Positions 978 through 20,615 of a stretch of DNA of 35,380 bases are shown here, piece after piece. The stretch's first letter is position 1. Each line of letters begins with the position of its first letter. The stretch comes from Thermoplasmata archaeon. GTDB taxonomy: Archaea > Thermoplasmatota > Thermoplasmata > Lutacidiplasmatales > UBA184. The notes under the pieces were generated by a model. It did no database searches and was not told the DNA's origin. It was given only the letters and a program-made list of their open reading frames with translations. The stretch covers positions 1 through 35,380 of the forward strand of contig JASHYB010000080.1 in assembly GCA_030043255.1 (NCBI GenBank). Reading direction: 5' to 3'. A program made the translations under genes and the position numbers.

Positions 978-1360
978 GGTCGCCGAGGGCGGAGCTCGGA
1001 CCGGGAGAAAGGGTTTCGGCGACGGGGGCCACCTCCGAGCGAGGTCGGAGCTACGGTCCCATAGCCTGCCGAATTTTCAGGCCGGAGCGGGACCGACCGA
1101 GCGCGGCTCGCTCGATCGGACCCGTTCCTGCGGCGTCCGCGCCGACGCCCGCGCGTCGGCACCGCCGAACGTCGGTCGGGGGTCGAACCTCGCTGGTCCG
1201 AGGTGACGAGGCCCCGCAGAAACAGCGCTGCGCCGAGGGAGGAACGCGGACCTTCGGCGGAGTGGGGGTGGGAGGGACCGGAGGTCCGCGTCACAGCTCC
1301 AGCGACGCCGCGGGGGATAAGCCCACCTCTCGACCCGCAACTCCGCCATGTTATGAAACC

Positions 1361-3288: not shown

Positions 3289-6200
3289 CTACGGGGACGA
3301 CGCGTCCGGCGGCGGACCGGACTCTCCCTGCGGGGCGGCAGCGGGCGAGTCCCCGGCGCCGCTGTCGGCTGGGGGGCTCGGGTCGGCCGAGCCGGTGGCG
3401 CCGGCTTCGGAGGATTCGGTGCCCGTGCTGGCGGGCGAGGACTTGGGGGGCGGGACCGGGCGTTCCTCCGCGCCGCTCTCCTCCTCGGGCGCGGCGGAGT
3501 CGCCCGGCGAGACCTCGGGGACCGGTACGGCTTCCTCGGGGGACCGAGCTTCGGGTGCCGGAGAGACCGGTTCTCCGGGCTCGACGAAAGGTGTCGCGGC
3601 ATGCGGGCCCCCGGTCTCCGCCTCCGATACCGACGCCACAGGGCTTGCGGAGCCCGCCTCCGACCCCGCGGATGACGAGCTCTCGGGCACCCTCTCCGGG
3701 CTGTTGGCCGACATCACCCCGGTTTCGGCCTCGGGAACGGACACTCCTGCGTCCCCCGGACCTGCCTCAGCCGCCGGTGCGGGTGAGTCGCCGGGACCGG
3801 CGTCGGGCAGGGGGGCTGTCGCGTTCTCTTTCGGAGCGTCAGGCGCCGAACCGGCCAACCCACCGGCTTCGCCCTCGGCGGAGCCCGGCGCTTCGCCGTC
3901 GGCCCCGGGCTCAGTCGCGGCGCCGGCTAGTTCCCCGCTTCCGATCTCCGCCGTGGGCGGGGATGCTTCGCCTGAGCCCGCCTCCGCTCCTGGTGCGGGC
4001 AGAACATCGGGCCCCGCGGCGGCCACCGGTCCGGTCTCCTCCGTGGTCGCACCTCCGGGCGCCGCGACGTCCGTCGCGCCGGGGGCAGCTTCGGAGGTCG
4101 CGAGCGGGGCGCTGCCCGGCTCGTCCTCCGTAGCGATGTGGGTCCCCTTCTCGTCTTCCGCCGCAGCGTCCGGGCCGGTGAGAACGACGGGCTCGATCGC
4201 GGTCGCGGCAGGTATCTCGGCGCCAGCCGGAGGCGCCGGCTCCGCGACGCCCCCGGTGCTCCCCTGCGGGGACGGAAGACCGAGGTCGGAGACGAACCGG
4301 TCCAGCTCGGTCGGCGTCAGCAGCCCGGGGGTCAGGTGCAGCCAGGCCCGCGCCTCGTGCTCGCGCGCCTGGCGGTCCAGCTCCTTCAGGAACGCCACGA
4401 CCGCCTCGCTCCCGTGGATCCGGGTGAGGTACTCCGTCCCCTCGAGGAAGACGGCGGTGATGCCGCTGCTCTCGAGGCCCTGCCGAAGGAGGTCGGCCAG
4501 CCCCCTCAGGTCGCTCGGCCGGATCGCCCGGTCGCGGGCCAGGTTGCTGAGCCAGTAGACGGCGACCGGTCGCGGGCCGACGAGCGTGCGGATCCGCTCC
4601 GGCAGCTCCCGAACCACCGCGACCCCGCGGTGCCCCGCCGCGGTCGCTTCGAGGAACGGCTGCAGCGCGGGCAGCAGCGCTTCCGAGAGCTCGACCTCGA
4701 GACCGGCCGCCGGTACCGGCGCCGTCGCGAGCGGCGGGGTCGGCAGGTTCCCGGCGGCGCGGTCCGCTTCGGAGACGAACGCTGGCGCGACCGGGGGAGG
4801 CGGGGGAGGAGGGGCGCGCGCCGGTGGCGGGAGGGGCGCTGGCGGCAGGGGAGCCGGCGCCGCCGGGGGCGTAGGGGCCGGCGGGGGACCGGCAGGAGGG
4901 GCCACGCTCGTCGGCCCCACCGTTGCGGGTGCCGGCGCCGAGAGCTCTGACGTGAGCTCCCGCTCAGGGGTCGGCAGGGCAGGGAGGACAACGCTGACCC
5001 GGGAGAGGTCGTCCAAGGCGCCGGGGGCCTCGACCGCCAGCGCCGTGGGCGCGGCGGGACGGAGAGGAAGCGGTGCGGAGCGAGCGGGGGGCGTCCTGGG
5101 CGTCCGCACCGGTCGCGGCGGCGGAGCGGGGACGTCGCGGCCCAGCTTGGCGAACAGTCGCGCGGCCACCGGCCGGCCGAAGCCCGGCAGGGTCGCGAGC
5201 TCGTCGAACGACGCGGAGCGGATCTCCTCCACGGACGCGTAGCCGGCGTCCCAGGCGATCGCGACCTTGGACGGCCCCAGCAGCGGGGCGTCGAGCAGCT
5301 TGTCGAGCTGCTCGCCGAGCGCCCGCACCGCGTCCTCGTGGCCGATGACCGCGCCGTCGGTGTAGTCGACCTCGGGCCCACCGTCCGGGGTCGGTCGCTG
5401 GCGGATCGGCATCCTCCGGCTCGCGCCGGAGCCGCCGCGCGGCGCGGGGCGCGGGGACTTCGGCGGGCGGCCGAGCAGCCCCGGGATCTCCACCGACCAT
5501 CGGGTCCCGAGCCGGGTCCGGCCGGTGACCGCGGGGGGCACGGACTCCGGTCCGGGGGCGGCGTCGATCGTCAGGCGCGCCACGCCGAGCGCGGCGGCCA
5601 CGGCCGCCCACCGCTCGCGCAGCTCCTTGGCGAGCGGGTCGACGGCGACGATGCGCACGGCAAGGGCCCGCGACGCCTCCGGACCGACCCGGCGCAACCG
5701 GCGCCCGACGCGTCGGACCAGCCAGGCGGCGTCCGCCGAGAGCACCGCGCTCGGGCCGCCCGAAGCGGCCGCGCCGGTCGCCGGCACCTCCGCGTACATC
5801 TCGCCGAGGCCGAACGCCACCGGGACGACCCGGTCGGGGAGCGTCTCGACGAGCGCGAGCATGGACGGCGTGATCTGGTGCGGCTGGCCCTGGACGAAGA
5901 CCGAGAACCCCCGAGCGGTCTCCTGCTCGCCGGGCCGACGCGGCGGGGTCCGCTTCAGCAGGTACAGGATCTGCGTCGCCAGCGTGGGATAGGCCTTCTG
6001 GATCTCGCTCTCCACCGGGACCAGCTGGCGCCGCCGGCCCTCCCACGGGGTGCGGGGGCTGCCGACCTCGAGCCGGCCGATGCGGGCGAGCCGCTCGAGC
6101 AGGCTCCGGTCCCCGCGGAGCTGGTCCCCGAGCTGGTCGTCGGTGACGACCAGCGCCACCAGCGGTACCAGGGTCCCCGGGGCGAGGTGGCGCTCCGTGC

Positions 6201-8415
6201 GGAAGCGGTCGACCGCCCGCACGACGGCGACCCAGCGCTCCCAGGCCTCGCCGAACGCCTCGTCCGCCGGCGCGTGCTCGACGTCGAACGGCTCCGTCTC
6301 GAACAGACTGCGCGGGTCCGGGCGCAGCGTCCGCACCACCGCCTCGGCGGTGAACGGTGCGACCGGCGCGAGCGCCGTGGCCAGCTGCGCCAACACCGAG
6401 CCGAGGGTGCGGAGGGCGGCCCTTCGGCCGGCCGGCGGTTCGCCGGCGGCCAAGCGCGGCCGGACGATCTCCCGGTAGCGCGCCAGGTCGACCTCCAGGA
6501 ACCGGGCGAGCCGGCGGTGCGCTTCGCCCGCGCGGAACTCGTCGTAGGCGGCCAGGACCTTCAGCTCCGTCGCCGACCAGCGCGCCAGCAGGGCGCGGTC
6601 CTCCGGCTGGAGCTCGCGGTCGTTCGGGCTGAGCGTCGCGCCGAGGGTGCCGGCCGCCTCCCGCTCGAGCGCCGCCGCGGTCGAGGCCGCCAGCTCCGCG
6701 AGCCGGGCGAAGCGGCGCCGCTCCTGCCGGCAGCGCTCGACGAACGAGCCGCCGGGGCCTTCGCTCGAGTCCAGGCGCACGAACGCCGCCCGGACCGCGT
6801 CCGCCCCGTGCTCGGCGACCAGCCCCACGACGTCCACGTCGCTGACCGTCGGCAGGATCGTCGCCTGCAGCTCCGCCACCCGTGCCCCGGCGCCGGCCAT
6901 CGCCGCGAGCAGGTGCACGATCGTCGGCGCCCGTCGGCGCTCGCTGATGTACAGGCGCACCGGCTCGCCGGACGGCAGCGGCGCGAGGCGCGCCCAGGCG
7001 CCGAACGCCCCGGCGACCGACGGCACCAACCGTCGGGCGACCGGCCGGCGCTTGCCCCCGCAGGGACAGCTCGTCGGTCCGTCCGGCGCATCCAGCCTCG
7101 GGCAGCGCTCGCACTCGAGCAGCGTGACCGCTTCCGGCGCGTCGCTCGTGCGGGTCTCGCTCACCGGCCAGGCGGTCAGCTCGATCTGCGCGACCGGCCG
7201 GTCCCCCGGCAGCAGCGCGGCGTACTGGGCCAGCTGCTCGGCCGGCAGGCGGCCGGGCTCCAGGCACCAGCAGCGGCCGGGGGTCCAGACGACCGGGCGC
7301 CCGCAGACCCCGCAGTACGGGACCCCTCGCAGGACCCGCAGCCGGGCGAGGACGCTACCGCCCTCGGTCAGGTCCCGCGCGACGAACTCCGTCGCGGTCT
7401 CGAGGTCGAGGCCGGAGTACTTGTGCATCAGCGTCAGCTCGAGGGTCCCGTGGATCGTCAGCAGCGGCCAGCCGTGGACGCCGAGACGTTCGGCGATCTG
7501 CGCGTCGGTCCCGCCGTGGCCGGGGACCAGCGGCACGACGCCGGTCCCGCTGTCGCCGACCTCCGGGACCGCCTGGATCGTACCGGAGGGCGCCGCGAGC
7601 GACGCGCCGTCCGGGAACTCGTGCCGGAGCGGGTAGACGTAGCGCCGGCCCGTGTAGGCGCGCCCCGGCTTCTCGGCGAGCACCGTCAATTCCGCGCCGG
7701 GGAGCCAAGCCCGCAGTCGGTCGATGGAGGAACGGAGGATCAGCAGACGGGCCTCGACGTCGCCCCGGCGGTACTGGACCGTCGCGTAGGCGAGATCCGG
7801 GTTCATCAGCAGCGCGGTCGTGCCGAGCAGCCGCCACGGCGCGTCGACCCAGGCGAGCGCCTCCACCGGCTCCTCGCCGGCCACCGGCTCCAGCGGGAAC
7901 CGGACCAGGAACGTGTCGCCGATCTCCTCGTGGTAGATCGTCCGCTCGGGACTGCGCGGCGCCGCGCAGGACGGACAGAGCCGGATCGGCCCGTCGCCCG
8001 CGACCAGGATCCCCGCCCGCGCGAGCCGGGAGGCGATCGCCTGCACGCCGGCGGTCCGCTCGACGGCGTCGTACGGGCGGCCCCCCTCGCCGCCGGTCCA
8101 GACCGCGAGGGAGCGCAGCAGCGGCGCGACGACCGGGTCTTCGCCGCCCGCCGGCCAGCCTTCACGACGGAGGGTCCCCTCCACGCGTCCGGCCCCGAGC
8201 GCGGTGGCGCGCGCGTCGACGTCGGCGGCGACCGCCCGTTGGGCCACGAGGACCGGCGGGTCGCCGGGGGTGTAGGTCCCTTCGAGCTGCCGCAGGACCG
8301 GCTCCGTACCGTGCCCGAGCACGCCGCCCGGCGGCGGAAGACCGTGGGCCGCCCAGAGCCGCCGGATCTCCTGTTCGACGAGCGCGAAGCTGTGCTCGAC
8401 CTCCGGCTCGCTCAC
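3289..8415 (-). CDS. isoleucyl-tRNA-synthetase-like pseudoenzyme fused to HhH, Pro-rich linker, DUF835-like domain and acidic disordered tail
   Basis: This is track ORF 3289..8505 (1738 aa). I prefer GTG 8415 as the start. The first 30 codons from ATG 8505 have poor GC3, and that ATG would leave only 41 nt to the aIF5A ATG. Class Ia aaRS landmarks seen by eye: FALVEQEIRRLW, LCPSC...YCGVCGRPVVW, ALAWVDAPWRLLGTTALLMNPDLAY, GTGVVPLVPGHGGTD, HGADAVRAAF, and an anticodon-domain-like stretch DRALLARWS...FLEVDLARYREIVRPRL. There is no HIGH or KMSKS motif. The C-terminal part contains FDELATLPGFGRPVAARLF (HhH), a poly-Pro region, and VAVYWLSNLARDRAIRPSDL...AVFLEGTEYLTRIHG (DUF835-like). Confidence 0.85.
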   Translation of the reverse strand: MSEPEVEHSFALVEQEIRRLWAAHGLPPPGGVLGHGTEPVLRQLEGTYTPGDPPVLVAQRAVAADVDARATALGAGRVEGTLRREGWPAGGEDPVVAPLLRSLAVWTGGEGGRPYDAVERTAGVQAIASRLARAGILVAGDGPIRLCPSCAAPRSPERTIYHEEIGDTFLVRFPLEPVAGEEPVEALAWVDAPWRLLGTTALLMNPDLAYATVQYRRGDVEARLLILRSSIDRLRAWLPGAELTVLAEKPGRAYTGRRYVYPLRHEFPDGASLAAPSGTIQAVPEVGDSGTGVVPLVPGHGGTDAQIAERLGVHGWPLLTIHGTLELTLMHKYSGLDLETATEFVARDLTEGGSVLARLRVLRGVPYCGVCGRPVVWTPGRCWCLEPGRLPAEQLAQYAALLPGDRPVAQIELTAWPVSETRTSDAPEAVTLLECERCPRLDAPDGPTSCPCGGKRRPVARRLVPSVAGAFGAWARLAPLPSGEPVRLYISERRRAPTIVHLLAAMAGAGARVAELQATILPTVSDVDVVGLVAEHGADAVRAAFVRLDSSEGPGGSFVERCRQERRRFARLAELAASTAAALEREAAGTLGATLSPNDRELQPEDRALLARWSATELKVLAAYDEFRAGEAHRRLARFLEVDLARYREIVRPRLAAGEPPAGRRAALRTLGSVLAQLATALAPVAPFTAEAVVRTLRPDPRSLFETEPFDVEHAPADEAFGEAWERWVAVVRAVDRFRTERHLAPGTLVPLVALVVTDDQLGDQLRGDRSLLERLARIGRLEVGSPRTPWEGRRRQLVPVESEIQKAYPTLATQILYLLKRTPPRRPGEQETARGFSVFVQGQPHQITPSMLALVETLPDRVVPVAFGLGEMYAEVPATGAAASGGPSAVLSADAAWLVRRVGRRLRRVGPEASRALAVRIVAVDPLAKELRERWAAVAAALGVARLTIDAAPGPESVPPAVTGRTRLGTRWSVEIPGLLGRPPKSPRPAPRGGSGASRRMPIRQRPTPDGGPEVDYTDGAVIGHEDAVRALGEQLDKLLDAPLLGPSKVAIAWDAGYASVEEIRSASFDELATLPGFGRPVAARLFAKLGRDVPAPPPRPVRTPRTPPARSAPLPLRPAAPTALAVEAPGALDDLSRVSVVLPALPTPERELTSELSAPAPATVGPTSVAPPAGPPPAPTPPAAPAPLPPAPLPPPARAPPPPPPPVAPAFVSEADRAAGNLPTPPLATAPVPAAGLEVELSEALLPALQPFLEATAAGHRGVAVVRELPERIRTLVGPRPVAVYWLSNLARDRAIRPSDLRGLADLLRQGLESSGITAVFLEGTEYLTRIHGSEAVVAFLKELDRQAREHEARAWLHLTPGLLTPTELDRFVSDLGLPSPQGSTGGVAEPAPPAGAEIPAATAIEPVVLTGPDAAAEDEKGTHIATEDEPGSAPLATSEAAPGATDVAAPGGATTEETGPVAAAGPDVLPAPGAEAGSGEASPPTAEIGSGELAGAATEPGADGEAPGSAEGEAGGLAGSAPDAPKENATAPLPDAGPGDSPAPAAEAGPGDAGVSVPEAETGVMSANSPERVPESSSSAGSEAGSASPVASVSEAETGGPHAATPFVEPGEPVSPAPEARSPEEAVPVPEVSPGDSAAPEEESGAEERPVPPPKSSPASTGTESSEAGATGSADPSPPADSGAGDSPAAAPQGESGPPPDASSP

Positions 8416-8454
8416 CGCGGGACCCTGCCGACAGCCGGAGAGAGGCGGGCGCGC

Positions 8455-8466
8455 GGGAATAAACCC
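8455..8466 (-). promoter_or_regulatory. TATA-like element for the IleRS-like gene
   Basis: The minus strand reads GGGTTTATTCCC, about 45 nt upstream of GTG 8415. Confidence 0.4.
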
Positions 8467-8505
8467 ATCTCGGCGGCGGCAGGCGTTCGAGGCACCCGAG
8501 CACAA

Positions 8506-8546: not shown

Positions 8547-8933
8547 ATGGCCTGGACGCAGCAGGAGGTCCGCGAGCTCAAGGAAGGCCGCTACCTGCTC
8601 ATCGACGAGGAGCCGTGTCGCATCCTGAGCATCCAGACCTCCAAGCCCGGGAAGCACGGGGAAGCGAAGGCGCGCATCGACGCCGTCGGGCTGTTCGACG
8701 GTTCGAAGCGCAGCGTCGTGTACCCGGTCAAGCACAAGGTCCAGGTCCCGCTGATCGGTAAGCGCCAGGCGCAGGTCCTCTCGCTCAGCGACACCGAGGT
8801 CCAGCTGATGGACCTCGAGTCGTACGAGACCTTCCAGCTCGCGGTCGACGCGGAAGGCCGCGCCGGCCTCGCCCCCGGGGCCGAGGTCCAGTACCTGGAC
8901 GCGATGGGCAAGCGCCGCATCACGCGCGCGTAG
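8547..8933 (+). CDS. eif5a: translation initiation factor 5A (aIF5A)
   Basis: The 128-aa ORF has the hypusination-site motif [14 protein letters not shown] and the typical N-terminal [15 protein letters not shown]. The C-terminal OB-like half ([25 protein letters not shown]) is also present. Confidence 0.96.
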
Positions 8934-8990: not shown

Positions 8991-9003
8991 ATTTATAAGG
9001 AGG
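8991..9003 (+). promoter_or_regulatory. ATTTATAAGGAGG element (TATA box and/or Shine-Dalgarno-like) upstream of the giant repeat gene
   Basis: This is the strongest AT-rich element in the aIF5A to repeat-gene spacer. TTTATAA fits a TATA box and AAGGAGG fits an SD. Confidence 0.5.
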
Positions 9004-9243
9004 CCCGAGCATCGAAGCGGTGTCCGAGCCCTAGCCCGGCCGCCGGGGCGGGCAGACGGTTCAGGGGGGAGAGCGACGTCCGGTCAGGGAGGCCCCGGGC
9101 CTCTCCCGTCGTCCCGCCTGACGCGGATCCTTCAGGAGAAGGCGGAGGCGCTGCGCAAGAAGCGCCAGTCCGCCGAGGCGATCCAGCGGGATGTCGACGA
9201 GCGGCTCGCCCAGCTCGCCCGACTCGGGATCGTCCCGCCGGGC

Positions 9244-12200
9244 GTGGCGGAACGGCAGGAGCAGCTCCGCGAGCTGGCTCGACGGACCGACTGGGAGCTG
9301 CTGGAGACCCAGGCGCGCGCGCTCCTGGATCAACTGGCCACCACCGTGCCGGCGACGATCGAGGGCCGGCGCCGCCACTCGGAGGAGTTCGCGCTCCGGC
9401 TGAGCGCCGGCGGCGTCGCGCTCTCCGCCGCGCTCACCGACGAGCTCGCGGCCCTCGCGCATCCGCCGGACGGAGCCTCCTGGGCGCAGACCCTCTCCCG
9501 CCTCGCGAGCGTCGACGACGGCCTGCGGGCGGCCGCGACCGGCCAGCTCGAGCGGGCGCGCGCGGCGGCGGTCGACCTCGCCCGCTGGGCCGGCGTCACG
9601 CCGGCGCGGCTGACCGAGCTGGAGCGGGCGCTGCCCGACCCGGCGACGGCGGTCCGCGAGGACCGGATCGGCGAGGCGATCGCCACGATCCACCAGATCG
9701 TCGCCGAGCGGTTCCCCGAGGTCGCGGACCGGCGGGAGAAGAGCCGGGCGCTCGCCGGGCGGCTGCGGACGGTCGCCGACGAGCTCGGCGCGTCGACCCA
9801 GTCGCTGGACGAGGCGTTGCACGCCGACGCGGACGCGGCTCCGGAGAGCTGGCCGGCGAGCGTCGCCCGGCTCGAAGGGGCGACCTCCCAGCTCGCGGAG
9901 TCGCTGCGGGGCAAGGCGGCGCAGGCGCTGGACGGGCTGCGGGCCTCGCTCGGCCAGCTCGCCGACTACGGCGTCGATCCGGCGCCGGCCCGCGCGACCG
10001 TCGAGGTCGCGCTCGCGAGGCTGCCGGCCGCCGCGCCGGACGAGATCGCCTCCGTCCTCACCGAGGCGCGGACCGCGGCGGAGGAGCCGATCGTCACCGT
10101 CGTGGCCGGCCTATTGGACGAGGTCCGGCCGCGCATCGTCAGCGCCCGGCGCCTCGGACGGGACCCGCGGGAGGTGTTCGCCGCGATGAACCGGGCCCGC
10201 GAGGCGCTGCGGCTGAAGATCTACTCGGAGGCGCTGGCCGCCAGCCAGGAGGCGCTCGAGAAGGTCCGCGAGCTCACCGCCGACCTGGACACGGCGCGCG
10301 ACGAGCTCGCCTCCGTGGAGGAGATGGTCGGGCGGTTCCGCCGCGTCGGCTACACCTCGCCCGGGGTCGACGCGCAGCTCGCGCGGGTCCGCCACCACCT
10401 CGGCCGCTCCGAGGTCGCGCCGGCCCGCGAGGCGCTGCAGGCGGCGGTCCGGGAGCTCGGCGGCGGGGCGGTCGCGTTCTTCCTGGACCGGTCCCAGGCG
10501 CTCGGCCGGGCGCGCGACTTCGCCCGGGCCAGCGGCTTTCTGCCGGCGGACGTCGACCGGGAGCTGGAGGAGGCCCGCGGCCGGCTGGACGGCGGCGAGC
10601 TCACCGAGGCGGTCGACGCGCTCGCGCGGGCGGAGGTCTCGCTGCGGGTCGCCGCCGCCCCGTTCGTCGCCCGCCGGGTCGAGGAGATGGAGGCGGCGTT
10701 CGCCGACCTCGGCGACGAGGGCCTGGCGACCCCGGTGCGCCGGCACCTCGCCGACGCCGACGTGACGCTGCGCGTCAAGGAGGACCTGCTCGGCGCGCTG
10801 GAGAGCCTGCGCCGGGCCGAGCGGGACTTCGGCGGGGTCTTCTCCTCCCGGGCGTCGTCGCTGGTCGAGGCGCTGGAGGAGGAGGTCCGGGTCCTCGCCT
10901 CCATGGGGGGCGCGGGGGAGGAGATCCAGCGCCAGATCGACGAGGTCCAGCAGATCTTCAACATGGGGGATTTCGTGCGCGCCGCCAAGGCGTCGCAGGA
11001 GATCCGGACCCGGGCGCAGCAGCAGCAGCTGCTCCGCAGCGAGGAGGCGGTCTCCCACGCCAAGCTCTCCCTGGTCGAGCTGGAGGCGATCGGCCTGGAG
11101 GTCGGCGCGATGCGTGCCGAGTTCGACGCCGCCCAGCAGCTCGCGCGCGGCGGCCGGTACCTGGACGCCTACCGGGCCGCGACGCGCCTCGAGGAGGAGG
11201 CGGTCCGGCGCCGGGGCGCCGCGCAGGCGCTCATCGGGCGGATCGGCCGCGTCGAGGCGTTCGCCCAGCGGGTCCGCGCGGCCGGCATCGAGCCCGGGCC
11301 GGTCGACGCGACCGTCGCCGAGGCCCGGGCGGCGGTCCGCTCGCTCGACTTCGAGCGGGCGAAGGGCCTCGCGGAGGCGGCGGAGCAGCGCCTGGTCGCC
11401 GCCGAGGCGCAGCTGGAGACCGCCAAGCGCCTGAGCGAGCTCACGCTCCTGATCGAGGACGGCCGGCGGCTCGGCCTGCCGATGGAGCCGTACGTCGCGC
11501 GGCTCGATCGGCTCCGTACGGAGGCCCCGACCGCCCCCCCCGAGGCGACGCGCGACGGCGCCAAGCGGCTGCACGAGGAGCTGGTCAGCGTCCTGCGCCC
11601 GCTGCTGGAGGAGCACCTGCGGGCGCTGGAGCGGGACCTCGAGGTCGCCCGGGGGGCCGGCGTCCTGCTCGAGCCGGTGGTCTCCAAGGTCGCCGAGGCC
11701 CGTCGCCGCATCTCGCTCGAGGTGCCGACCGGCGCGGCGGTGCTGCTGGACGAGATCCGCAGCGCCCTGGTCACGACCCGGGGCTTCGTCGACCAGGCGG
11801 AGCGGGTCGCCCGGCGCGTCCACGAGGCGGTGGCGCAGTCCGAGCTGCTGCACGTCGACGTCGGGCCGCTGCGCGCCCGCGCCGACGAGGTCGACCGGGC
11901 GCTGGAGGCCCGCGACTACCCGAAGGTCGTCGAGCTCGGCGGGACGGTCGAGCGGGAGCTGAACCAGGGGATCTACCAGCACGTGTCGAAGACCCTCGCC
12001 GGCTTCCAGGCGACGGTCACCCAGGTCCGGCGCGCCGGCGGGAACGCCTCGGTCGCCGAGAACCTGCTGCACCAGGCCCGGATGGCGCTGGACGAGGGGC
12101 GGCCGGTCGAGGCGCTCCAGTTCGCCTCCCGGAGCGAGACGGAGCTGGAACGCGTCGAGCTGCAGCAGCGCCTCGCCGAAGGGGCGCTGGAGGCCGCCGA

Positions 12201-13572
12201 GCGGTCGGTGGAGCGGGCGGTCCGGGACGGGACCGTCGCCACGGAGGCGACCGACGGCCTGCGGACCCTGCGCGAGGCGTACGCGCGGCGCGACTTCGCC
12301 GCGATGTTCGAGCAGGCGATCGTCGTCTCCGAGTCGCTCGCCGGGGCGCGGGAGGGGGCGCGGCGGGCCCGCGAGGCGCTCGCCAACGCCGACCGCCATC
12401 TGGCGGAGGCGACCGCGCTGGGGGCGGACGTGCGCGAGGCCCAGGAGCGGCTCGCCGAGGCCCGGGCGGAGGCGGAGGCCGGTCACTACGTCGCGAGCGT
12501 GCAGGTCGCCCACGAGACCGTCGAGAAGTCCCGCTGGGCGATCGAGCGGATGTTCAGCGTGCCGATCGGCGAGCTCCGCCGGGAGGTCGAGGCGGTCCGG
12601 GCGGAGGGGACCGCCGCGGAGGTCGAGCCGCTGGACGCCGTCGTCTCGGACGCGGAGGCGGCGCTGCGGGCCGGCAGCTGGGCCCGGGTCCGCACGTCGC
12701 TCGCCCGGGCCGACGCGCAGAGCCGCCGCCTCTTCGGGGCGCTGGTCGACGCCCGCTGGCGGGAGATCGACGCGGAGGCGGCCCGCCGCGGGGGCGACAC
12801 CCCGACCGAGCTCGCCCGCCGCAGCGAGCTTCGGGGCCAGCTGGACCGGTTGAAGGAGCGGCGGGACCTCGGCGAGGCGCTGCGCCTGTTGAAGGGGGAG
12901 CTGGAGGCGGTCCGGGCCCGCGAACGGGAGGCGGTCGCCCAGGCGATGGCGGAGTTCCGCGACCGCCTCTGGGTCGGCGAACGCCTCGGGGTCGACACCA
13001 CCCCGGTGATGCAGCGGTTCGGGGAGGCCCGGATCGCGCTGGATGCCGGCCGGTTCACGGAGGCGAGCGCGCTGCTCGAGCGGGCGACCGACGCCCTGGT
13101 CGAGACGGTACGGCCGGCGCTCGCCCGCCGTCGCAAGGAGCTCGCCAGCGAGGTCGCGTTCGCGGAGGGGGGGCTGCACGTGACCGTCGGGCCGGTCAAG
13201 GACCGGCTGCGCGAGGCGGACGAGCTGATCGTCGTCGGCCGGGTCCTGGACGGGGCCCGGATCGTACTGAAGGGGGAGGAGGAGCTCGGCCTGCGCAAGT
13301 CCCTCCACCGGGAGCTGACCAACCTGCACTACCTTTTGGACGCGGGATTGGCGCGCGCCTCCGAGCGGGGGGTCGACACCACCGAGGTCCGGCGCCTGCT
13401 CACCGAGTCGCTCCAGCTGCGCGCGACCGATTATCCGGCGGCGCTGGAACGGGCGCGCGAGGCGCTCCGGCGCCTGCAGCAGCAGGGGGTCCCGGTCAGC
13501 GAGCCCGGCGGGGGCGCTTCGGGCGGGGTCTGGCCGTTCCGCCGCCCTCCCGGGCCGGGCGGCGACGCCTAG
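9244..13572 (+). CDS. giant all-alpha repeat protein (~64-aa helical modules), function unknown
   Basis: The 1442-aa ORF is Ala/Glu/Arg/Leu-rich with strong GC3 bias. A signature A-R-x-A-L-x-x-G-x-aromatic-x-x-A recurs every ~60-65 residues. GTG 9244 is the first canonical start, but coding-like sequence continues upstream to about 9118 (see findings). Confidence 0.85.
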   Translation: MAERQEQLRELARRTDWELLETQARALLDQLATTVPATIEGRRRHSEEFALRLSAGGVALSAALTDELAALAHPPDGASWAQTLSRLASVDDGLRAAATGQLERARAAAVDLARWAGVTPARLTELERALPDPATAVREDRIGEAIATIHQIVAERFPEVADRREKSRALAGRLRTVADELGASTQSLDEALHADADAAPESWPASVARLEGATSQLAESLRGKAAQALDGLRASLGQLADYGVDPAPARATVEVALARLPAAAPDEIASVLTEARTAAEEPIVTVVAGLLDEVRPRIVSARRLGRDPREVFAAMNRAREALRLKIYSEALAASQEALEKVRELTADLDTARDELASVEEMVGRFRRVGYTSPGVDAQLARVRHHLGRSEVAPAREALQAAVRELGGGAVAFFLDRSQALGRARDFARASGFLPADVDRELEEARGRLDGGELTEAVDALARAEVSLRVAAAPFVARRVEEMEAAFADLGDEGLATPVRRHLADADVTLRVKEDLLGALESLRRAERDFGGVFSSRASSLVEALEEEVRVLASMGGAGEEIQRQIDEVQQIFNMGDFVRAAKASQEIRTRAQQQQLLRSEEAVSHAKLSLVELEAIGLEVGAMRAEFDAAQQLARGGRYLDAYRAATRLEEEAVRRRGAAQALIGRIGRVEAFAQRVRAAGIEPGPVDATVAEARAAVRSLDFERAKGLAEAAEQRLVAAEAQLETAKRLSELTLLIEDGRRLGLPMEPYVARLDRLRTEAPTAPPEATRDGAKRLHEELVSVLRPLLEEHLRALERDLEVARGAGVLLEPVVSKVAEARRRISLEVPTGAAVLLDEIRSALVTTRGFVDQAERVARRVHEAVAQSELLHVDVGPLRARADEVDRALEARDYPKVVELGGTVERELNQGIYQHVSKTLAGFQATVTQVRRAGGNASVAENLLHQARMALDEGRPVEALQFASRSETELERVELQQRLAEGALEAAERSVERAVRDGTVATEATDGLRTLREAYARRDFAAMFEQAIVVSESLAGAREGARRAREALANADRHLAEATALGADVREAQERLAEARAEAEAGHYVASVQVAHETVEKSRWAIERMFSVPIGELRREVEAVRAEGTAAEVEPLDAVVSDAEAALRAGSWARVRTSLARADAQSRRLFGALVDARWREIDAEAARRGGDTPTELARRSELRGQLDRLKERRDLGEALRLLKGELEAVRAREREAVAQAMAEFRDRLWVGERLGVDTTPVMQRFGEARIALDAGRFTEASALLERATDALVETVRPALARRRKELASEVAFAEGGLHVTVGPVKDRLREADELIVVGRVLDGARIVLKGEEELGLRKSLHRELTNLHYLLDAGLARASERGVDTTEVRRLLTESLQLRATDYPAALERAREALRRLQQQGVPVSEPGGGASGGVWPFRRPPGPGGDA

Positions 13573-14048
13573 GTCCGCGGGAAGCCGCCGACGATCCCGA
13601 CCCCGACGGGGGTGGGCGGGGAGCGCGGAGGTCCTAGGGGCAGCCGGTCGTACTCCACGGAGTGGCGGATACCGCGGCGCCGGAGCATCTGCGAAACGTG
13701 CTCGGTGATCTGCACCACCTCCTGGCAGCGCGACGGCTTGGCGAAGTACATCTCCACCCGACGCTCGTCGGCGAGCGGGAAGATCAGTCGCAGCCCGAAC
13801 GGGTCCTGCCGGTTGTAGCCGACCGGCTTGCGGTTGCCCTTGAGGTCCCGCAGGTTCTCGTCCAGCAGCACCTCCGGCAGCAGCGGGTCCGCTTCCCGGA
13901 CGAACGGCCGGTTCATCTCGACGACCCGCTTGTGGATCTCCGGGTACACCCGGAGGAGGTCCCGGTAGTCGCGCTTGGGTTCGAGCAGGATGTGCCCGCT
14001 GCGGGCCTTCACCGGGGCGCTCACGCCGCTCGTAGCCCGTCCCCGCAC
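13569..14048 (-). CDS. hypothetical protein
   Basis: The 159-aa ORF has balanced, non-shadow composition (HILLEPKRDYRDLLRVYPEIHKRVVEMNRPFVREADPLLPEVLLDENLRDLKGNRKPVGYNRQDPFGLRLIFPL...). I did not recognise a family. The start is GTG 14048 or an internal GTG. Its stop overlaps the stop of the convergent gene. Confidence 0.65.
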   Translation of the reverse strand: MRGRATSGVSAPVKARSGHILLEPKRDYRDLLRVYPEIHKRVVEMNRPFVREADPLLPEVLLDENLRDLKGNRKPVGYNRQDPFGLRLIFPLADERRVEMYFAKPSRCQEVVQITEHVSQMLRRRGIRHSVEYDRLPLGPPRSPPTPVGVGIVGGFPRT

Positions 14049-14147
14049 TTAGGTTCTCGCGCGGAGCCGCTCCGGGGCCTCCAGGGAACCGTGACGGCCG
14101 TCCCAGAGGAGCAAGGTTCAAGGGCGACGCCCCTTAGCGGGGCGGGC

Positions 14148-14249
14148 GCTCCCGTAGTCTAGTGGTCAAGGATAGAGGCCTCTCGAGCCTCTGACGCGGG
14201 TTCAAAAGGGGCCGGCCGGCGCCGACCCCGGAAACTCCCGCCGGGAGCA
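14148..14249 (+). tRNA. tRNA-Glu (anticodon CUC) with a ~29-nt intron in the T-loop
   Basis: Folded by hand. The acceptor stem GCTCCCG (14148-54) pairs with CGGGAGC (14242-48) over a perfect 7 bp. U8 is present, and the D-arm is GTCT/AGTGGTCAA/GGAT. The anticodon stem GAGGC/GCCTC carries loop CTCTCGA, giving anticodon CTC. T-stem GCGGG (14196-200) pairs with CCCGC (14237-41), but 36 nt lie between them instead of 7. The discriminator is A 14249, and CCA is not encoded. Confidence 0.8.
14207..14235 (+). other. putative non-canonical tRNA intron (position ~59/60 in the T-loop)
   Basis: Removing AGGGGCCGGCCGGCGCCGACCCCGGAAAC restores a canonical T-arm GCGGG-TTCAAAT-CCCGC. The exact splice junctions are ambiguous by 1-2 nt. 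The insert has a GGGG...CCCC helix. Confidence 0.6.
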
Positions 14250-14266
14250 CCTTGCCCGTCGGGCAC

Positions 14267-14294
14267 GCTGGGTCCGCTGGGTCCGCTTTGGTCC
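14267..14294 (+). repeat. short tandem direct repeat downstream of the tRNA
   Basis: GCTGGGTCC GCTGGGTCC GCTTTGGTCC, read directly from the sequence. Confidence 0.7.
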
Positions 14295-14392
14295 GACGGA
14301 TGGGGCAGGCCGTCCACGACTCTTTCGGGGCCGGGAGGTCACGGGGAAGCAAGTAACTCCCGAGGGGTTCGTAGGGTCCGTTTTCCTCAAGG

Positions 14393-14402
14393 TTCTTATA
14401 GG
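14393..14402 (+). promoter_or_regulatory. TATA-like box for the substrate-binding-protein gene, followed by an SD-like GGTGGGAGG at 14433-14441
   Basis: TTCTTATAGG is an AT-rich island in GC-rich DNA about 50 nt upstream of ATG 14451. The GGTGGGAGG ends 9 nt before the ATG. Confidence 0.5.
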
Positions 14403-14450
14403 GGTAACCTCTCTCCCCCGCAGACCCGACAAGGTGGGAGGGTCAAATCG

Positions 14451-17400
14451 ATGGAGAATACCATGAGAGGAAAGCGGACTCTAGCGATCGCCGCATGCCT
14501 TGTGATGATACTTGGCATGGGGCTGACCGTGGTGTCTGGCGCGGCGTTGGCTCACCCCGTGAGCCCCGCGGCGGCCAGTTCCGGGGCCACGTCGCTAGCG
14601 GGAGCCAAGACGTCGAACTATCCAGTGAGTGGCCACAAGGGTAGTCTCGTGGTCGACGACGCCTTCGGGGGCGCGGTAGCCTTCTCCGAAGACCCGGCGG
14701 TCGACTACGAAACGATCGGTTACGAACCTATTTTGAACGTGTATCAGGGGCTTCTCGGCTACAACGGGTCGAGCTCGACGGGCAGCAGCCTGTCGCAGTT
14801 CGTGCCGGTGTTGGCGACCTGCGTGCCGGGCACCGCACAGTGCACGGCGGACTACGGCACCGACCTGGTCGTCGACAACGCGACCAGCGGCGGCCCGCAG
14901 TACTACACGTTCGTCATCGACCCGGCGGCGCACTTCTACGACCCGTCGACGCAGGCCTCTTGGTCGGTCTACCCGACGGACGTGATGTTCTCGATCGCGC
15001 GCGACATGGCGTGGAGCCAGCAGGACGGGGTCGGGACGACGGCCGGATGGCTGGTCGCCCAGACGCTTCTGCCGAACGCCACGTCCAACGGACCGTTCGC
15101 GGGCGAGTCGTACCAGGCGACGCCGACGGACATCTACAGCTCGATGCTGATCAACGACTCGAACTACTGCCCGGCGAGCGCGATGAACGGGGTCACCGGT
15201 AACGGCTGCATCACGTTCAACGTGGACGGCCAGGGCGCGCTGTGGCCGCAGACGCTGTTCTACCAGGTGCTGGCGGACGGCTTCATGTCGGTCGTCTCGT
15301 GCGCGTGGTACTCCCACAACGGGGACAACCTGACCGGCTGGGACAGCCCGGACAACGGCTCGAGCCAGGACAGCTCGTGCCTGCTGCCGGACGGCCAGAA
15401 GACCACCGACAACTCCGCGTGGACCAACTACGTCAACAGCCTGCCGGAGACGTACTGGGACAACTACGAGAACGAGATCATCACGATCGAGGCCGACGAC
15501 GGCGCTGAGCCGGGGGCCCCGAACGCGCAGTACACCCAGATCGGCTCGGGCCCGTACTACTCGATCCTGCGGCCGACGGGGAGCCCACCGGGCTACACCC
15601 TGTTCGCGAACCCGGCGTACGAGCAGCCGAGCGCCTTCTCGGGCGCCCACGGCCTGGCGACGTACCCGGACAGCTACAGCTGGCCGGCGCCGGGCGGGTA
15701 CATCCCCCAGGTGACGATCAACTGGGACGAGTACAGCAACGCGGCGATCGAGGGCTACGAGCAGGGGACCATTGACCTCGGGGCGATCCTGCCGAACGAC
15801 ACGGCGAGCCTGCTCAGCCTGCAGCAGAGCGGCGATCTCTCGTACTTCGACGTGCCGACGCTGAGCAGCTTCTTCTCGCCGATCAACCTGAACTACAGCA
15901 TCTCGGCGTGGGACAGCGACTCGTTCACGGAGTTCGGTACCCCGAACGTTCCGGCCGACTTCTTCTCGGGCGTGGCGGCGCGGCAGCTGTTCATCCACGC
16001 CTACGACTACACCACGGCGGAGGAGAAGGGCGAGACGATCCTGAACGTGCAGTACCAGTACCTCGCGGGCGGACCGATCGCCAACGGGATGGACTACGAC
16101 CCGACGAACATCACCTACCCGTACGAGGAGGGCAACGCCGGGACGAACCCGGCGGTCAACGGTAGCGCCGCGTGGTGGTGGCAGCAGGGGACGGACCCGT
16201 CCTCGCCCTACTACGACCCGGAGCTGGCCGCGTGCACGAAGTCCTCTCCGTGCGTGCTGGGCATCGTCGGGGAGACGGGCGACTCGGGCTACGATGTCGG
16301 GAAGGACGCGCTGGCGGCCAGCCTCGTGAACATCACGGGCGGCGCCATCCAGCCGTTCCTGGCCGACTTCAACTTCGCCGAAGTCCCGCCGGACCTGATC
16401 CCGGAGCAGACGGGTGCGCTGCCGACCGATGGGCCGCTGCAGATCTACACCCTGGGCTGGGCGGCGGACAACTTCGACCCCGAGGACTACCTGATCCCGA
16501 TGGCCTACCCCAACAGCACGTACACGTTCTCGGACGCGGTGCAGCAGCAGTTCGACATCGCGGAGTACGATGACGTGGCGAGCTGCGGGCACAGCGCGGC
16601 GAACCTGACCAACCTGATCTACTGGGCCAAGTACGGCGAGCTGACGAACGGCTGCGAGGGCGTCGCCTACAACGTCATCTCCGGCGGCGAGTTCTACAAC
16701 TCGACGCACGAGACGAACGCGGCGACCCGCGGGATCATGTACTGGGCGATCCAGACGATCCTGACGAACCTCGGGCTGTACATCTGGCAGGGCCAGTCGA
16801 ACCAGGTGACGAGCTACGCTCCGTGGATCGAGGCCTCGAGCATCAACACGAACCCGACGATCGGGGGCGGCGGCGACCAGCTGTGGTTCCAGATCCGGTA
16901 CGTTCCGTACGAGACGCACGTGACGTTCACGGAGAAGGGCCTGCCGAGCGGCTCGACCTTCAACGTGACGCTGGCCGACAGCGCCTCGCCGCAGGGCGTG
17001 ACGAACTCGAGCAACGGCACCGCGGCGACCAGCTTCTTCGCGCCGAACGGCACGATCAGCTACTCGTTCCCGGTGGTACCCGCTGGCTACGCGATCAGCT
17101 CGGTCACCGGCCCGAAGGGGACGACGACGACGGGCTCGACGGTCTCGGGGAGCGTCAAGGGCACGGCCCTGACGGTGAAGTTCGTCGCGGTGAACTCGCT
17201 CACGTTCACCGAAACGGGCTTACCGACCGGAACGACGTGGGGCATCAGTCTGACGTGGTCCGCCTCGAAGGGCGGTCCGCCGGACGGTAACGCCGGCGAC
17301 GCGACGTACTACCAGAACACGACCGCGAGCTCGATCTCGCTGAACGTGGCCGGTGGTGCGTGGAAGTTCGCGGTGTATGTGCCCACGAACTACAAGGTGA

Positions 17401-17735
17401 ACTTGCCGAAGGGCTCGGCCGCGGTCAAGACGACCGTGGACACCCCGGCGAGCAAGGCCTTGAAGTTCACCATCGTGACGGGAACGTACGTGTTCAGCGA
17501 GAAGGGGCTGAAGAAGGACACGACGTGGGGCGCGACGGTCACCGGTGCGGTGAACGACACGACGGTCTGTTCGTTCTCCACGACGAAGGCCTCCGACACC
17601 TGCAAGCTCGTCAGCGGAACGTACGACTACACCGTCTCGAGCGTGACCGGCTACACGGCGGCCCCGGCGAGCGGATCGTTCACCGTGACGGCCCCGAAGG
17701 GCGGCACGGAGAAGACGACGTACACCGCCACCTAG
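14451..17735 (+). CDS. ABC transporter substrate-binding protein, family 5 (peptide/nickel/oligosaccharide type), with three C-terminal beta-sandwich repeats
   Basis: The 1094-aa ORF has an N-terminal signal/anchor (LAIAACLVMILGMGLTVVSGAALA). The family-5 SBP-like core includes EPILNVYQGLLGY...YYTFVIDPAAHFYD...VMFSIARD. There are many N-x-S/T sequons. The C-terminus carries 3 copies of a FTE.GLP.G.T..V.L module. Confidence 0.9.
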   Translation: MENTMRGKRTLAIAACLVMILGMGLTVVSGAALAHPVSPAAASSGATSLAGAKTSNYPVSGHKGSLVVDDAFGGAVAFSEDPAVDYETIGYEPILNVYQGLLGYNGSSSTGSSLSQFVPVLATCVPGTAQCTADYGTDLVVDNATSGGPQYYTFVIDPAAHFYDPSTQASWSVYPTDVMFSIARDMAWSQQDGVGTTAGWLVAQTLLPNATSNGPFAGESYQATPTDIYSSMLINDSNYCPASAMNGVTGNGCITFNVDGQGALWPQTLFYQVLADGFMSVVSCAWYSHNGDNLTGWDSPDNGSSQDSSCLLPDGQKTTDNSAWTNYVNSLPETYWDNYENEIITIEADDGAEPGAPNAQYTQIGSGPYYSILRPTGSPPGYTLFANPAYEQPSAFSGAHGLATYPDSYSWPAPGGYIPQVTINWDEYSNAAIEGYEQGTIDLGAILPNDTASLLSLQQSGDLSYFDVPTLSSFFSPINLNYSISAWDSDSFTEFGTPNVPADFFSGVAARQLFIHAYDYTTAEEKGETILNVQYQYLAGGPIANGMDYDPTNITYPYEEGNAGTNPAVNGSAAWWWQQGTDPSSPYYDPELAACTKSSPCVLGIVGETGDSGYDVGKDALAASLVNITGGAIQPFLADFNFAEVPPDLIPEQTGALPTDGPLQIYTLGWAADNFDPEDYLIPMAYPNSTYTFSDAVQQQFDIAEYDDVASCGHSAANLTNLIYWAKYGELTNGCEGVAYNVISGGEFYNSTHETNAATRGIMYWAIQTILTNLGLYIWQGQSNQVTSYAPWIEASSINTNPTIGGGGDQLWFQIRYVPYETHVTFTEKGLPSGSTFNVTLADSASPQGVTNSSNGTAATSFFAPNGTISYSFPVVPAGYAISSVTGPKGTTTTGSTVSGSVKGTALTVKFVAVNSLTFTETGLPTGTTWGISLTWSASKGGPPDGNAGDATYYQNTTASSISLNVAGGAWKFAVYVPTNYKVNLPKGSAAVKTTVDTPASKALKFTIVTGTYVFSEKGLKKDTTWGATVTGAVNDTTVCSFSTTKASDTCKLVSGTYDYTVSSVTGYTAAPASGSFTVTAPKGGTEKTTYTAT
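16917..17732 (+). repeat. three tandem ~90-aa coding repeats (GLPxGTxW-type beta-sandwich modules)
   Basis: The repeats start at VTFTEKGLPSGSTFNVTL (about 16920), LTFTETGLPTGTTWGISL (about 17199) and YVFSEKGLKKDTTWGATV (about 17486). Confidence 0.75.
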
Positions 17736-17760
17736 ACCCGAGCCCGGGTCCAGGTCCAAC

Positions 17761-17785
17761 CCTTTCCTCCCTTTTCTTCTTCTTC
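17761..17785 (+). terminator. pyrimidine/T-rich tract after the SBP gene, followed by a hairpin at 17826-17845
   Basis: The tract cctttcctcccttttcttcttcttc begins 26 nt after the stop. The hairpin is AACGGGCC-cgtc-GGCCCGTT. Oligo-T tracts act as archaeal terminators. Confidence 0.5.
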
Positions 17786-17880
17786 GGGCAGGGACGAACT
17801 CCGGCCTCGGCAGATTAGATAGCTAAACGGGCCCGTCGGCCCGTTCTCGGCGGTCCGGCGTGCCGTTCCCCACGAAGGGT

Positions 17881-17890
17881 GTTTATATCG
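17881..17890 (+). promoter_or_regulatory. TATA-like box upstream of the first permease gene
   Basis: GTTTATATCG lies about 50 nt upstream of ATG 17935, and an SD-like GGGAGG lies at 17893-17898. Confidence 0.45.
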
Positions 17891-17934
17891 CCGGGAGGTT
17901 CGGGTTACCGTCCCGCTGCCGGGATCGCACGACC

Positions 17935-19254: not shown

Positions 19255-19264
19255 GGGGGGTCGG

Positions 19265-20476: not shown

Positions 20477-20615
20477 GTCCAGCGACGGACGGCCGGGATC
20501 GAGCGGTCCGGATCGTGGGACCCGAAGGGTAAGCGTGCAGTCCCCGGACGGCCGCTGAGCGCGGACCTCGACGTCGTGGGGGCCGGCCCGCCGCCCGACC
20601 GACCCGCGGAGCGAC

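Follow-up and report, generated by a model that had tools for sequence, protein, structure and literature searches.

A Thermoplasmata-wide family of predicted helical arrays of about 1,500 residues and its variant form in a Lutacidiplasmatales archaeon

We report that a large gene of a Thermoplasmata archaeon (GTDB lineage Thermoplasmatota; Thermoplasmata; Lutacidiplasmatales; UBA184) encodes a protein built from 23 tandem copies of a two-helix unit of ~63 residues. The gene lies in a stretch of 35,380 nucleotides (assembly GCA_030043255.1, contig JASHYB010000080.1, positions 1 to 35,380 of the forward strand), which we analysed as a whole and refer to as the window. Judged by profile and sequence comparison, the repeat protein is a lineage-specific variant of an undescribed Thermoplasmata family of ~1,500-aa helical arrays. 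Both the family and the repeat type are undescribed, within the known kind of alpha-helical repeat scaffolds. As to its role, we favour, with confidence and doubt about evenly balanced, an elongated, non-enzymatic scaffold of fixed length that would carry a docking element at each end.

The family alignment used for autocorrelation, AlphaFold2 modelling and conservation comprised 35 sequences. Measured against 200 column shuffles, profile autocorrelation peaked at lags 62 (z 6.7), 64 (z 4.0), 126 (z 3.7) and 189 (z 3.8), and it also showed the lag-7 signal that is typical of packed helices. For an all-against-all comparison with hhalign the protein, including a conserved N-terminal extension described below, was cut into 23 in-phase chunks of ~63 aa with their family sub-alignments; 21 of the resulting 253 pairs had a probability of ≥50 and seven of ≥80, while in the column-shuffled controls 0 of 253 reached 50. 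Among the 24 pairs with a probability of ≥40 the alignment offset was 0 in 20, +/-1 in three and 16 in one. A hidden Markov model (HMM) of the unit, built from a seed of 11 motif-bearing units and refined by iteration over the family, recovered 17 in-phase units, including non-seed units at E-values of 1e-9 to 1e-11, and its consensus, GVDPAPARAELAEARAALRAGDYAEA..., carries the lead-in G-(V/I/L)-(D/E)-x-x-P; the consensus of the iterated model is given as GVDPAPARAELAEARAALRAGDYAEARELLRRAEEALRRA.... The period is thus significant by autocorrelation, by hhalign against shuffled controls and by the unit HMM, and the ~63-residue periodicity exceeds chance.

AlphaFold2 was run on two overlapping halves with the 35-sequence alignments and returned mean predicted local distance difference test scores (pLDDT) of 88.1 and 88.7, with predicted template modelling scores (pTM) of 0.46-0.47. 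The secondary structure resolves 23 units with a period of 57-66 residues, each made up of a short helix (9-20 residues, median 15), a turn of ~3 residues, a long helix (35-43 residues, median 39) and a loop of ~5 residues, and the turn between the two helices falls at the G-x-(F/Y/W) motif. The array is laid out as follows:

9244..13482 (+): array of 23 tandem two-helix units (AlphaFold2 secondary structure, hhalign, unit HMM)
Starts of units 1-12 (+): 9244, 9427, 9601, 9799, 9982, 10168, 10366, 10546, 10717, 10915, 11104, 11302
Starts of units 13-23 (+): 11485, 11671, 11863, 12049, 12241, 12433, 12613, 12802, 13000, 13189, 13381

The units of one protein are only ~20% identical to each other, and each of them is individually conserved between species in a position-specific manner. 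A first-pass annotation made from the letters alone had described about 20 copies of a ~64-residue module, which was essentially right, the precise figures being 23 units of ~63 residues, each a pair of one short and one long helix. The eleven motif peptides that it quoted were all located within 1-3 residues of the positions assigned to them, at spacings of 61-65 residues or simple multiples, and further positions that it listed (572, 818 and 1323) likewise land on in-phase units; the lead-in that it had noted before the motif is genuine, being part of the unit HMM consensus.

Homologs at 52-88% identity number 257 (mean column identity 69%), all from uncultured soil and peat Thermoplasmata, and a relative is encoded in 128 GTDB species representatives including a 'Candidatus Lutacidiplasmatales' genome; the lineage, referred to as TMEG, has been characterised as a single order and family with a G+C content (GC) of ~69% (PMC9287336). 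With a profile of these close homologs the full-length matches were confined to the window's GTDB family (9 of 10 sampled genomes), and the weaker matches in other families were to proteins of 1,438-1,473 aa that have the same 63-aa unit at the same spacing. An exhaustive search with a profile of the window's own units against 1.84 billion representatives (E <= 1e-3) returned only 129 clusters, ~40 of which are 1,430-1,540 aa long.

The family occurs in three forms. The window-type form has ..SSRLTRILQEKAE.. near its N terminus and ends in FWPF(R/K)RP. The widespread form (~1,490-1,520 aa) consists of the helical array followed by an immunoglobulin-like (Ig-like) domain, GEW..A.LTL.N.GKALAKDV.V.ILGDAEVEGL, for which the related sequence L089 gives a CARDB match in Pfam, then by a finger, C-x2-C...C-x-C-x4-H-x2-C...C-x2-C, and often by a basic tail (..KRVALKI). 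A third form (~1,435-1,445 aa) has the Ig-like end without the finger. When the window type was aligned with the finger-bearing type in hhalign the probability was 100 (E 5.2e-67) over 1310 columns, residues 18-1481 against 2-1327. The phyletic distribution, which the first-pass annotation had proposed to determine, spans much of the class: the finger-bearing profile matches 157 of 201 sampled class genomes and 59 of 76 genera, usually through one gene of 1,440-1,600 codons. Since the whole array aligns collinearly across the class, unit order and total length are shown by these alignments to have been held nearly fixed since before the orders of Thermoplasmata diverged.

The window protein aligns collinearly with the other members, with more than 20 two-helix units of ~63 aa and a length within 1,430-1,600 aa; it departs from most non-TMEG members in having, instead of their Ig-like and RING end, a linker followed by the peptide WPFRRPP, and zero Cys. 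The first-pass annotation was therefore right to call it a protein of unknown family insofar as no curated family covers it (Pfam, NCBIfam, PDB sequences). It is no isolated protein, though: it represents the lineage's own form within a family that spans the class and in which Ig-like and RING domains are found in the other members.

Other Thermoplasmatota have much longer proteins, namely L087:5664-15128 (3,155 aa), L092:3-8342 (>2,780 aa) and L088:3269-19900 (>5,500 aa), which hold 14-35 or more detectable 63-aa units and of which two have a RING finger at the end as well. The 63-aa repeat type is accordingly, as far as profile detection goes, phylum-wide and occurs in longer arrays too.

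The window has a GC of ~75%, and where the gene lies long open frames overlap on several frames. Frame 9244-13572(+) has a GC of 0.83/0.51/0.975 at codon positions 1/2/3 and a protein-like composition (A 18, R 13, L 12 and E 11%), whereas the overlapping 1549-aa and 1336-aa frames have inverted GC-by-position patterns and translations dominated by R, G and P. On codon-position GC and composition 9244-13572(+) was chosen as the real frame among the overlapping ones, and it is the coding frame of a genuine gene. The features that define the gene and its start are:

9244..13572 (+): repeat-protein open reading frame (ORF) from the first canonical start (GTG), 1442 aa, stop TAG at 13570-13572
9058..9243 (+): in-frame conserved N-terminal extension, 62 codons without ATG, GTG or TTG
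8992..8998 (+): TATA-box-like TTTATAA, putative promoter upstream of the gene (sequence and DNA alignments)
9020..9034 (+): 4-codon mini-ORF, GTG TCC GAG CCC TAG, located after the TATA-like box and before the conserved start position, in another frame than the main gene

The first-pass annotation had found this ORF and given its length as 1440 aa, but conserved coding sequence reaches ~62 codons 5' of 9244. Homologs are mostly 1,490-1,510 aa long and start ~60 residues earlier, with MSGGRATSGxGGxGPLPSSRLTRILQEKAEALKKKRQ..., and the basic-helix motif of this region (..L(T/K)R(I/x)LQEKAE.. / ..YL+xxQLxKQLEEKAKEA..) is encoded in frame in 9058-9243, without a canonical start codon. Codon 9058-9060 is GGT where relatives carry a GTG start. 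The same GGT is present in the closest relative, an independent metagenome-assembled genome (L123) whose coding sequence is otherwise intact, so that it is not an assembly error; another genome of the same genus has CTG at this position. Over 61 codons of the extension the ratio of non-synonymous to synonymous substitution rates (dN/dS) is 0.19-0.36 against same-genus loci, with 9-13 synonymous and 6-12 non-synonymous codon differences, values that mark the extension as being under purifying selection. The gene thus probably starts ~62 codons upstream of 9244, near 9058, and the conserved protein, counting the predicted extension, is ~1,504 aa. The TTTATAA sits in a block that is almost invariant in same-genus relatives, and the mini-ORF pattern (GTG or ATG, three codons and a stop) is kept in four relatives.

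With three overlapping ORFs of >1,300 aa in one region and no ATG, GTG or TTG at the conserved start position, it might be argued that the frame is a spurious product of the 75% GC, or a pseudogene in decay whose start codon is gone. We find this scarcely credible in view of the GC3 of 0.975 and the protein-like composition in this frame only, the hundreds of full-length orthologs, the dN/dS of 0.25-0.36 against same-genus loci, N-terminal extension included, the absence of internal stops, and the independent assembly that shares the start-codon state in an otherwise intact coding sequence. A spurious ORF in particular is excluded by GC3, composition, orthologs and dN/dS.

In the extended numbering residues 1-19 form a disordered, Gly-rich N terminus, residues 20-55 a long helix that stands alone and residues 63-1475 the 23 units, of which the last has a long helix of only 17 residues. 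The parts outside the array and the most conserved units are:

9115..9222 (+): lone N-terminal long helix, residues 20-55 extended (AlphaFold2 model, charge count)
10168..10344 (+): unit 6, with a family-wide mean column identity of 0.84 (LGRDPSEVFAAMNRAREALRLKIYSEALAASQEA...)
10717..11088 (+): units 9-10, at 0.82 and 0.93 column identity the best-conserved part, including SMGGAGDEIQRQIDEVQQIFNMGDFV...
13483..13569 (+): C-terminal tail, a Pro/Gly/Ala-rich linker predicted to be disordered (AlphaFold2, pLDDT <50)
13531..13551 (+): C-terminal peptide WPFRRPP, with W, P, F, R, P and P invariant in the 35-sequence alignment

The first half of the N-terminal helix, SRLTRILQEKAEALRKKRQ, has a charge of +5 in a protein with a net charge of -28, and a similar basic helix motif is visible at the N terminus of distant orthologs. 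Column identity ranges over the units from 0.57 to 0.93 and is lowest in units 2-4 (0.57-0.60). Elsewhere in the lineage the C-terminal peptide varies as FWPLRR, FLPFRRPP, FWALRRPP and YSLFRRPP. A six-frame translation of the 56%-complete genome had WPFRRPP nowhere else, and with the motif unique to the repeat protein within that 56% we set aside the idea of a shared sorting or docking signal. Maximum hydropathy (19-aa Kyte-Doolittle mean 1.26) leaves no transmembrane (TM) segment in the repeat protein, and it has neither a Walker A motif nor Cys. An all-helical, cytoplasmic and non-enzymatic protein is thus supported, and the first-pass picture of a large cytosolic, modular helical protein with no TM segment and no Walker or other enzymatic motifs has been borne out.

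The arrangement of the units in space was approached through helix and loop lengths, the hydrophobic pattern and pTM. Hydrophobic positions in the long helix (1, 5, 8, 11-12, 15, 19, 22-23, 27, 30 and 34) keep a 3-4 spacing throughout, with a register shift near position 22-23 that divides the helix into two packing segments. From loops of 3-5 residues together with this continuous 3-4 pattern and its mid-helix shift we infer a staggered chain of three-helix bundles. The 5-residue loop after a 39-residue helix would force the next 15-residue helix onto the C-terminal part of that helix, and the following long helix would then continue in the same direction, so that the units would stack as a staggered chain of short bundles, each formed by short helix n together with the C-terminal half of long helix n-1 and the N-terminal half of long helix n. 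The resulting topology would be spectrin-like with a shorter repeat, and an axial advance of ~22-25 residues per unit would give an elongated rod of ~70-85 nm. A staggered chain agrees with the additional long helix at the N-terminal end, with the shortened last helix (17 residues) and with the register shift, and the low pTM despite high pLDDT fits an elongated shape.

Alternatively, the units could lie side by side and form a solenoid, closed or superhelical, of the TPR, Sel1 or HEAT type, which would make the protein a compact protein-binding hub whose concave surface would bind a large complex or peptides in extended form. The hairpin motif A-R-x-A-L-x-x-G-x-(F/Y/W)-x-x-A recalls the TPR A/B turn, TPR_16, TPR_19, TPR_4 and YfdX give sub-threshold matches on single units, the unit profile retrieves a bacterial TPR protein (P0153), and designed helical-repeat solenoids have the top probability (0.63) among non-significant Foldseek matches. 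We nevertheless consider the solenoid unlikely, as the chain, after a helix of 39 residues, a loop of 5 and a helix of 15, cannot regain the start of the previous helix, which disfavours the stacking of equal hairpins; moreover, pTM is just 0.46-0.47 at a pLDDT of 88, the period is 63 and not 34, and the TPR models all stay below cut-off.

Searches of the full repeat protein against Pfam and NCBIfam gave no match, a family profile against all PDB sequences gave a chance CENP-Q match only, and Foldseek searches of both AlphaFold2 halves against PDB gave nothing below E 0.17. The non-significant Foldseek list includes dynein tail, designed helical repeats, vinculin, alpha-catenin, EzrA, PRC1 and EbhA. 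Single units gave sub-threshold Pfam matches to YfdX (E 0.0095), Spectrin (0.015) and SbsC spectrin-like (0.09), and to TPR_16, TPR_19 and TPR_4 (0.012-0.056); for TPR models as a whole the single-unit E-values were 0.012-0.24, under cut-offs. The names given in source records are 'hypothetical protein' and occasionally 'TPR repeat protein' or 'HEPN domain-containing protein', with most homologs unnamed, and our literature searches found no paper on this protein family.

On these grounds several families were rejected. For TPR (clan CL0020) there was no match on the full protein, single units stayed below cut-offs and the period is 63. MIT (PF04212) gave no Pfam match on the full protein or single units. 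The MIT/TPR resemblance proposed in the first-pass annotation therefore holds at the level of the motif only, TPR being sub-threshold, MIT unmatched and the period 63 against 34. MIT domains were also absent from 13 genomes of the lineage, which removes the ESCRT/MIM idea of a Pro-rich C-terminal peptide binding MIT. Spectrin (PF00435) was matched by one unit only, at E 0.015, and is missing from the Foldseek list. In the case of EzrA (PF06160) there was neither a TM segment nor a PF06160 match, and Foldseek against 4uxv gave E 1.9 with a TM-score of 0.12-0.17. YfdX (PF10938), whose cut-off is 26.6 bits, scored 16.4 on unit 21 and had no match on the full protein. Finally, an SMC/Rad50-type coiled-coil ATPase, the match that had been named as able to overturn the repeat description, is excluded: there are no ATPase heads, no Walker A motif and no SMC family match, and no helix exceeds 43 residues, with hairpin turns in between.

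The finger of the orthologs matches the eukaryotic RING-H2 domains of RNF165 and Arkadia (E 8e-5) and, below cut-off, Prok-RING_1 and zf-RING_2 of Pfam. E2-like (UQ_con) genes above the Pfam cut-off are present in 94 of 201 class genomes; in the window's family they were found in none of 20 listed genomes and, in a separate search, in none of 13. In family f6 the E2-like gene is divergent from and adjacent to the giant gene in all nine genomes in which both were located (G096, G426, G441, G448, G461, G471, G501, G506 and G521). One such pair is an E2-like gene (L081:11823-12506) beside an ortholog that ends in the RING finger (L081:7279-11637), and no E1 or ubiquitin-like protein gene was found among the L081 neighbours scanned. 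The RING ortholog and the E2-like gene may constitute an archaeal ubiquitin-like ligase pair outside the Asgard lineage. RING and E2 are jointly absent in TMEG, where the array stays selected (dN/dS ~0.3), which argues that the array is valuable independent of the ligase module.

In other lineages the giant gene is linked to scpA-scpB, to Cgi121, which is directly upstream in two families, or to an E2-like gene. Directly upstream on the same strand, scpA-scpB was found in 21 of 30 ortholog loci from 6 GTDB families (L093-L109, L111 and L114-L116), with hutH convergent downstream. Genus g2, which belongs to the same family as the window, has an smc-scpA-scpB operon that is convergent to the gene at a distance of no more than ~100 nt (L085:6077-11200), and in a phylum-level relative scpB is 2 kb downstream. 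This recurrent scpA-scpB(-smc) linkage makes chromosome organisation the leading candidate for a cellular context and the one best supported from gene order, although we would still call it rather improbable in absolute terms. The protein would then work with the SMC-ScpAB condensin in chromosome organisation or segregation, as a nucleoid-bound rod that spaces or tethers DNA through its basic N-terminal helix. Archaeal ScpB did not bind ScpA in the species pairs tested (PMC7055376), and this leaves room for other partners. We hold the partnership with SMC-ScpAB to be just as improbable as the context itself: linkage is absent in the window's genus, where scpB is on other contigs or ~110 kb off, and in several other families such as f54 (genes ~100 kb apart), the 21 linked loci also share the downstream hutH, so that part of the signal is inherited synteny, and no DNA-binding domain was detected in the repeat protein. 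ScpB is also present in lineages without the giant protein; with ScpB in 192 of 201 class genomes, including those without a detected giant protein, the phyletic profile is uninformative and gene order alone speaks for the scpAB link.

By analogy with spectrin or EzrA the protein could instead be a self-assembling cytoskeletal or membrane-skeleton element, forming a polymer or lattice under the membrane of these probably wall-less archaea or regulating FtsZ/CetZ, and anchored by an amphipathic basic N-terminal helix and the aromatic-basic C-terminal peptide. Basic-hydrophobic elements are present at both ends, the surface is strongly conserved along the full length, and the lineage has 3-5 tubulin-family genes per complete genome; EzrA, PRC1, EbhA, vinculin and alpha-catenin are among the Foldseek matches, and one distant ortholog gives a weak EzrA and SbsC spectrin-like signal in Pfam. 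However, none of these structural or Pfam matches is significant, there is no TM anchor of the kind found in EzrA and no linkage to ftsZ, cetZ or sepF in any locus examined, and the hydrophobic moment of the N-terminal helix is modest. Such a skeletal role therefore strikes us as decidedly doubtful.

We thus return to the fixed-length scaffold with two docking ends. Its rod would be a spacer or a platform, with one partner (DNA or an acidic surface) held by the basic N-terminal helix and another by the C-terminal module, and units 6, 9-10 and 13-16 in the middle, which are highly conserved, would provide specific surfaces for docking. The Ig-like and RING-H2 module that forms the C terminus in most orders would work with the E2-like protein; in the window's lineage, where RING and E2-like gene are both absent, WPFRRPP would recruit a partner in trans. 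The array would set a defined distance between the partner recruited by the C terminus and the one bound by the N-terminal helix, and the variability of the C-terminal module (RING and Ig in most orders, a short aromatic-basic peptide in the window protein) suggests such a positioning role for the array.

Several points weigh against this scaffold. The three-dimensional arrangement was derived indirectly, and in Foldseek neither spectrin nor EzrA nor another rod was matched significantly. The scpAB linkage is phylogenetically clustered and absent in the window's genus, with no signal in the ScpB profile, and the neighbours in the window's lineage (aIF5A, the dead IleRS fusion and a 159-aa protein, all described below) point elsewhere or nowhere. 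Moreover, the conserved N-terminal helix has no canonical start codon here, and this copy could be N-terminally truncated. A still more specific version, which we regard as a long shot, would make the protein a Thermoplasmata-wide molecular ruler, that is, a rod of ~70-85 nm with its N-terminal helix on the chromosome and tied to SMC-ScpAB and with a RING-H2 E3 at the far end that works with a dedicated E2-like enzyme, the window's lineage having lost RING and E2 and rewired via WPFRRPP. If true, a system of ubiquitin-like modification with a spatial organisation would exist outside the Asgard and Caldiarchaeum lineages.

Neighbouring genes were counted over 80 related loci of the TMEG lineage, where a four-gene block is conserved (synthetase-like gene, aIF5A, repeat gene and the convergent gene of the 159-aa protein); genes beyond this block are not conserved among the 80 loci. 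The neighbours of the repeat gene in the block are:

3289..8505 (-): 1738-aa protein like isoleucyl- and valyl-tRNA synthetases (IleRS/ValRS), divergent upstream, in 67 of 80 loci
8547..8933 (+): translation factor aIF5A, upstream and co-directional (NCBIfam NF003076, E 4.7e-54), adjacent in 70 of 80 loci
13569..14048 (-): conserved 159-aa protein, convergent, in 73 of 80 loci at 77-89% identity, its stop overlapping the repeat-gene stop

The first-pass annotation had raised the question whether orthologs sit beside aIF5A, and in the 70 same-lineage loci they do, but this arrangement is confined to the TMEG/Lutacidiplasmatales family. The 1738-aa protein scores 91 bits with IleRS and 74 bits with ValRS against cut-offs of >600, and further contains Anticodon_1, HHH_5 and DUF835 domains, with a long tail of low complexity at the C terminus; it has the appearance of a synthetase paralog without catalytic function. 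The 159-aa protein has no match in Pfam, NCBIfam or PDB, and its co-occurrence with the C-terminal motif gave no discriminating pattern. We considered it as a diverged E2 or ScpB and rejected both, as it is unlike the E2-like protein of L081, has no Pfam or PDB match, and ScpB is encoded elsewhere in the genus.

Further out, an IS630-family transposase gene at 1262-2395 (+) (NF033545, E 6e-39) is separated from the end of the synthetase-like gene by 0.9 kb, with a counterpart at the corresponding place in only 4 related loci. Over 14000-20500 the GC falls from ~0.75 to ~0.66 across a gene for a solute-binding protein and two Opp/Nik-type permease genes. The solute-binding protein (1094 aa) has no Pfam match, is Ser/Thr-rich with Ig-like C-terminal repeats, and its gene is nearby in only 15 of 80 loci; the region may be a horizontally acquired transporter cassette. 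ARAGORN predicted no tRNA at 13500-14600.

A single-copy gene of ~1,500 codons that is present in about four-fifths of sampled Thermoplasmata, with near-constant length and unit order but no curated family or solved relative, is by such conservation likely to be an important and unstudied part of archaeal cell biology. The 63-residue repeat, with its helices of 15 and 39 residues, is a distinct architectural type that merits a family definition. The RING-H2 finger, the adjacent E2-like genes and the scpA-scpB linkage offer testable entries into chromosome organisation and ubiquitin-like signalling in Euryarchaeota-type archaea, and the RING-less copy of the soil lineage represents a natural separation-of-function variant in which the helical array appears to be selected in its own right.

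Compared with known systems, the likeness to RING-H2 E3 ligases (RNF165/ARK2C, Arkadia) concerns the orthologs of other orders only, which have a C-terminal cross-brace finger and co-occurring E2-like genes, whereas the window protein has neither Cys nor finger and its lineage no UQ_con gene. YfdX (PF10938) is the sole curated model to pass its cut-off on any family member (41.3 bits against 26.6, over about one unit of a distant ortholog), and two close homologs carry it as a precomputed annotation; its model has 149 positions, while the repeat protein is cytoplasmic and iterates its motif 23 times. With TPR and Sel1-like repeats the unit shares the turn motif A-L-x-x-G-x-(Y/F/W)-x-x-A between antiparallel helices and weak profile cross-matches, but its period is 63 against 34-36, its second helix is 2.5 times longer and the matches are below gathering cut-offs. 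The spectrin-type rods (spectrin/alpha-actinin, EzrA, the N-terminal domain of SbsC and Ebh of S. aureus) differ in having units of ~106 aa and three helices against 63 aa and two, in the TM anchor of EzrA and the secretion signal of SbsC and Ebh, both missing from the repeat protein, and in their Spectrin, EzrA and SbsC models being under threshold and their Foldseek matches at E 1.9 or worse. These rods nevertheless resemble the repeat protein in their tandem helical units with continuous long helices and in their role as non-enzymatic spacers or scaffolds, and the three-helix cross-section and elongated shape that we propose for the array would also be theirs.

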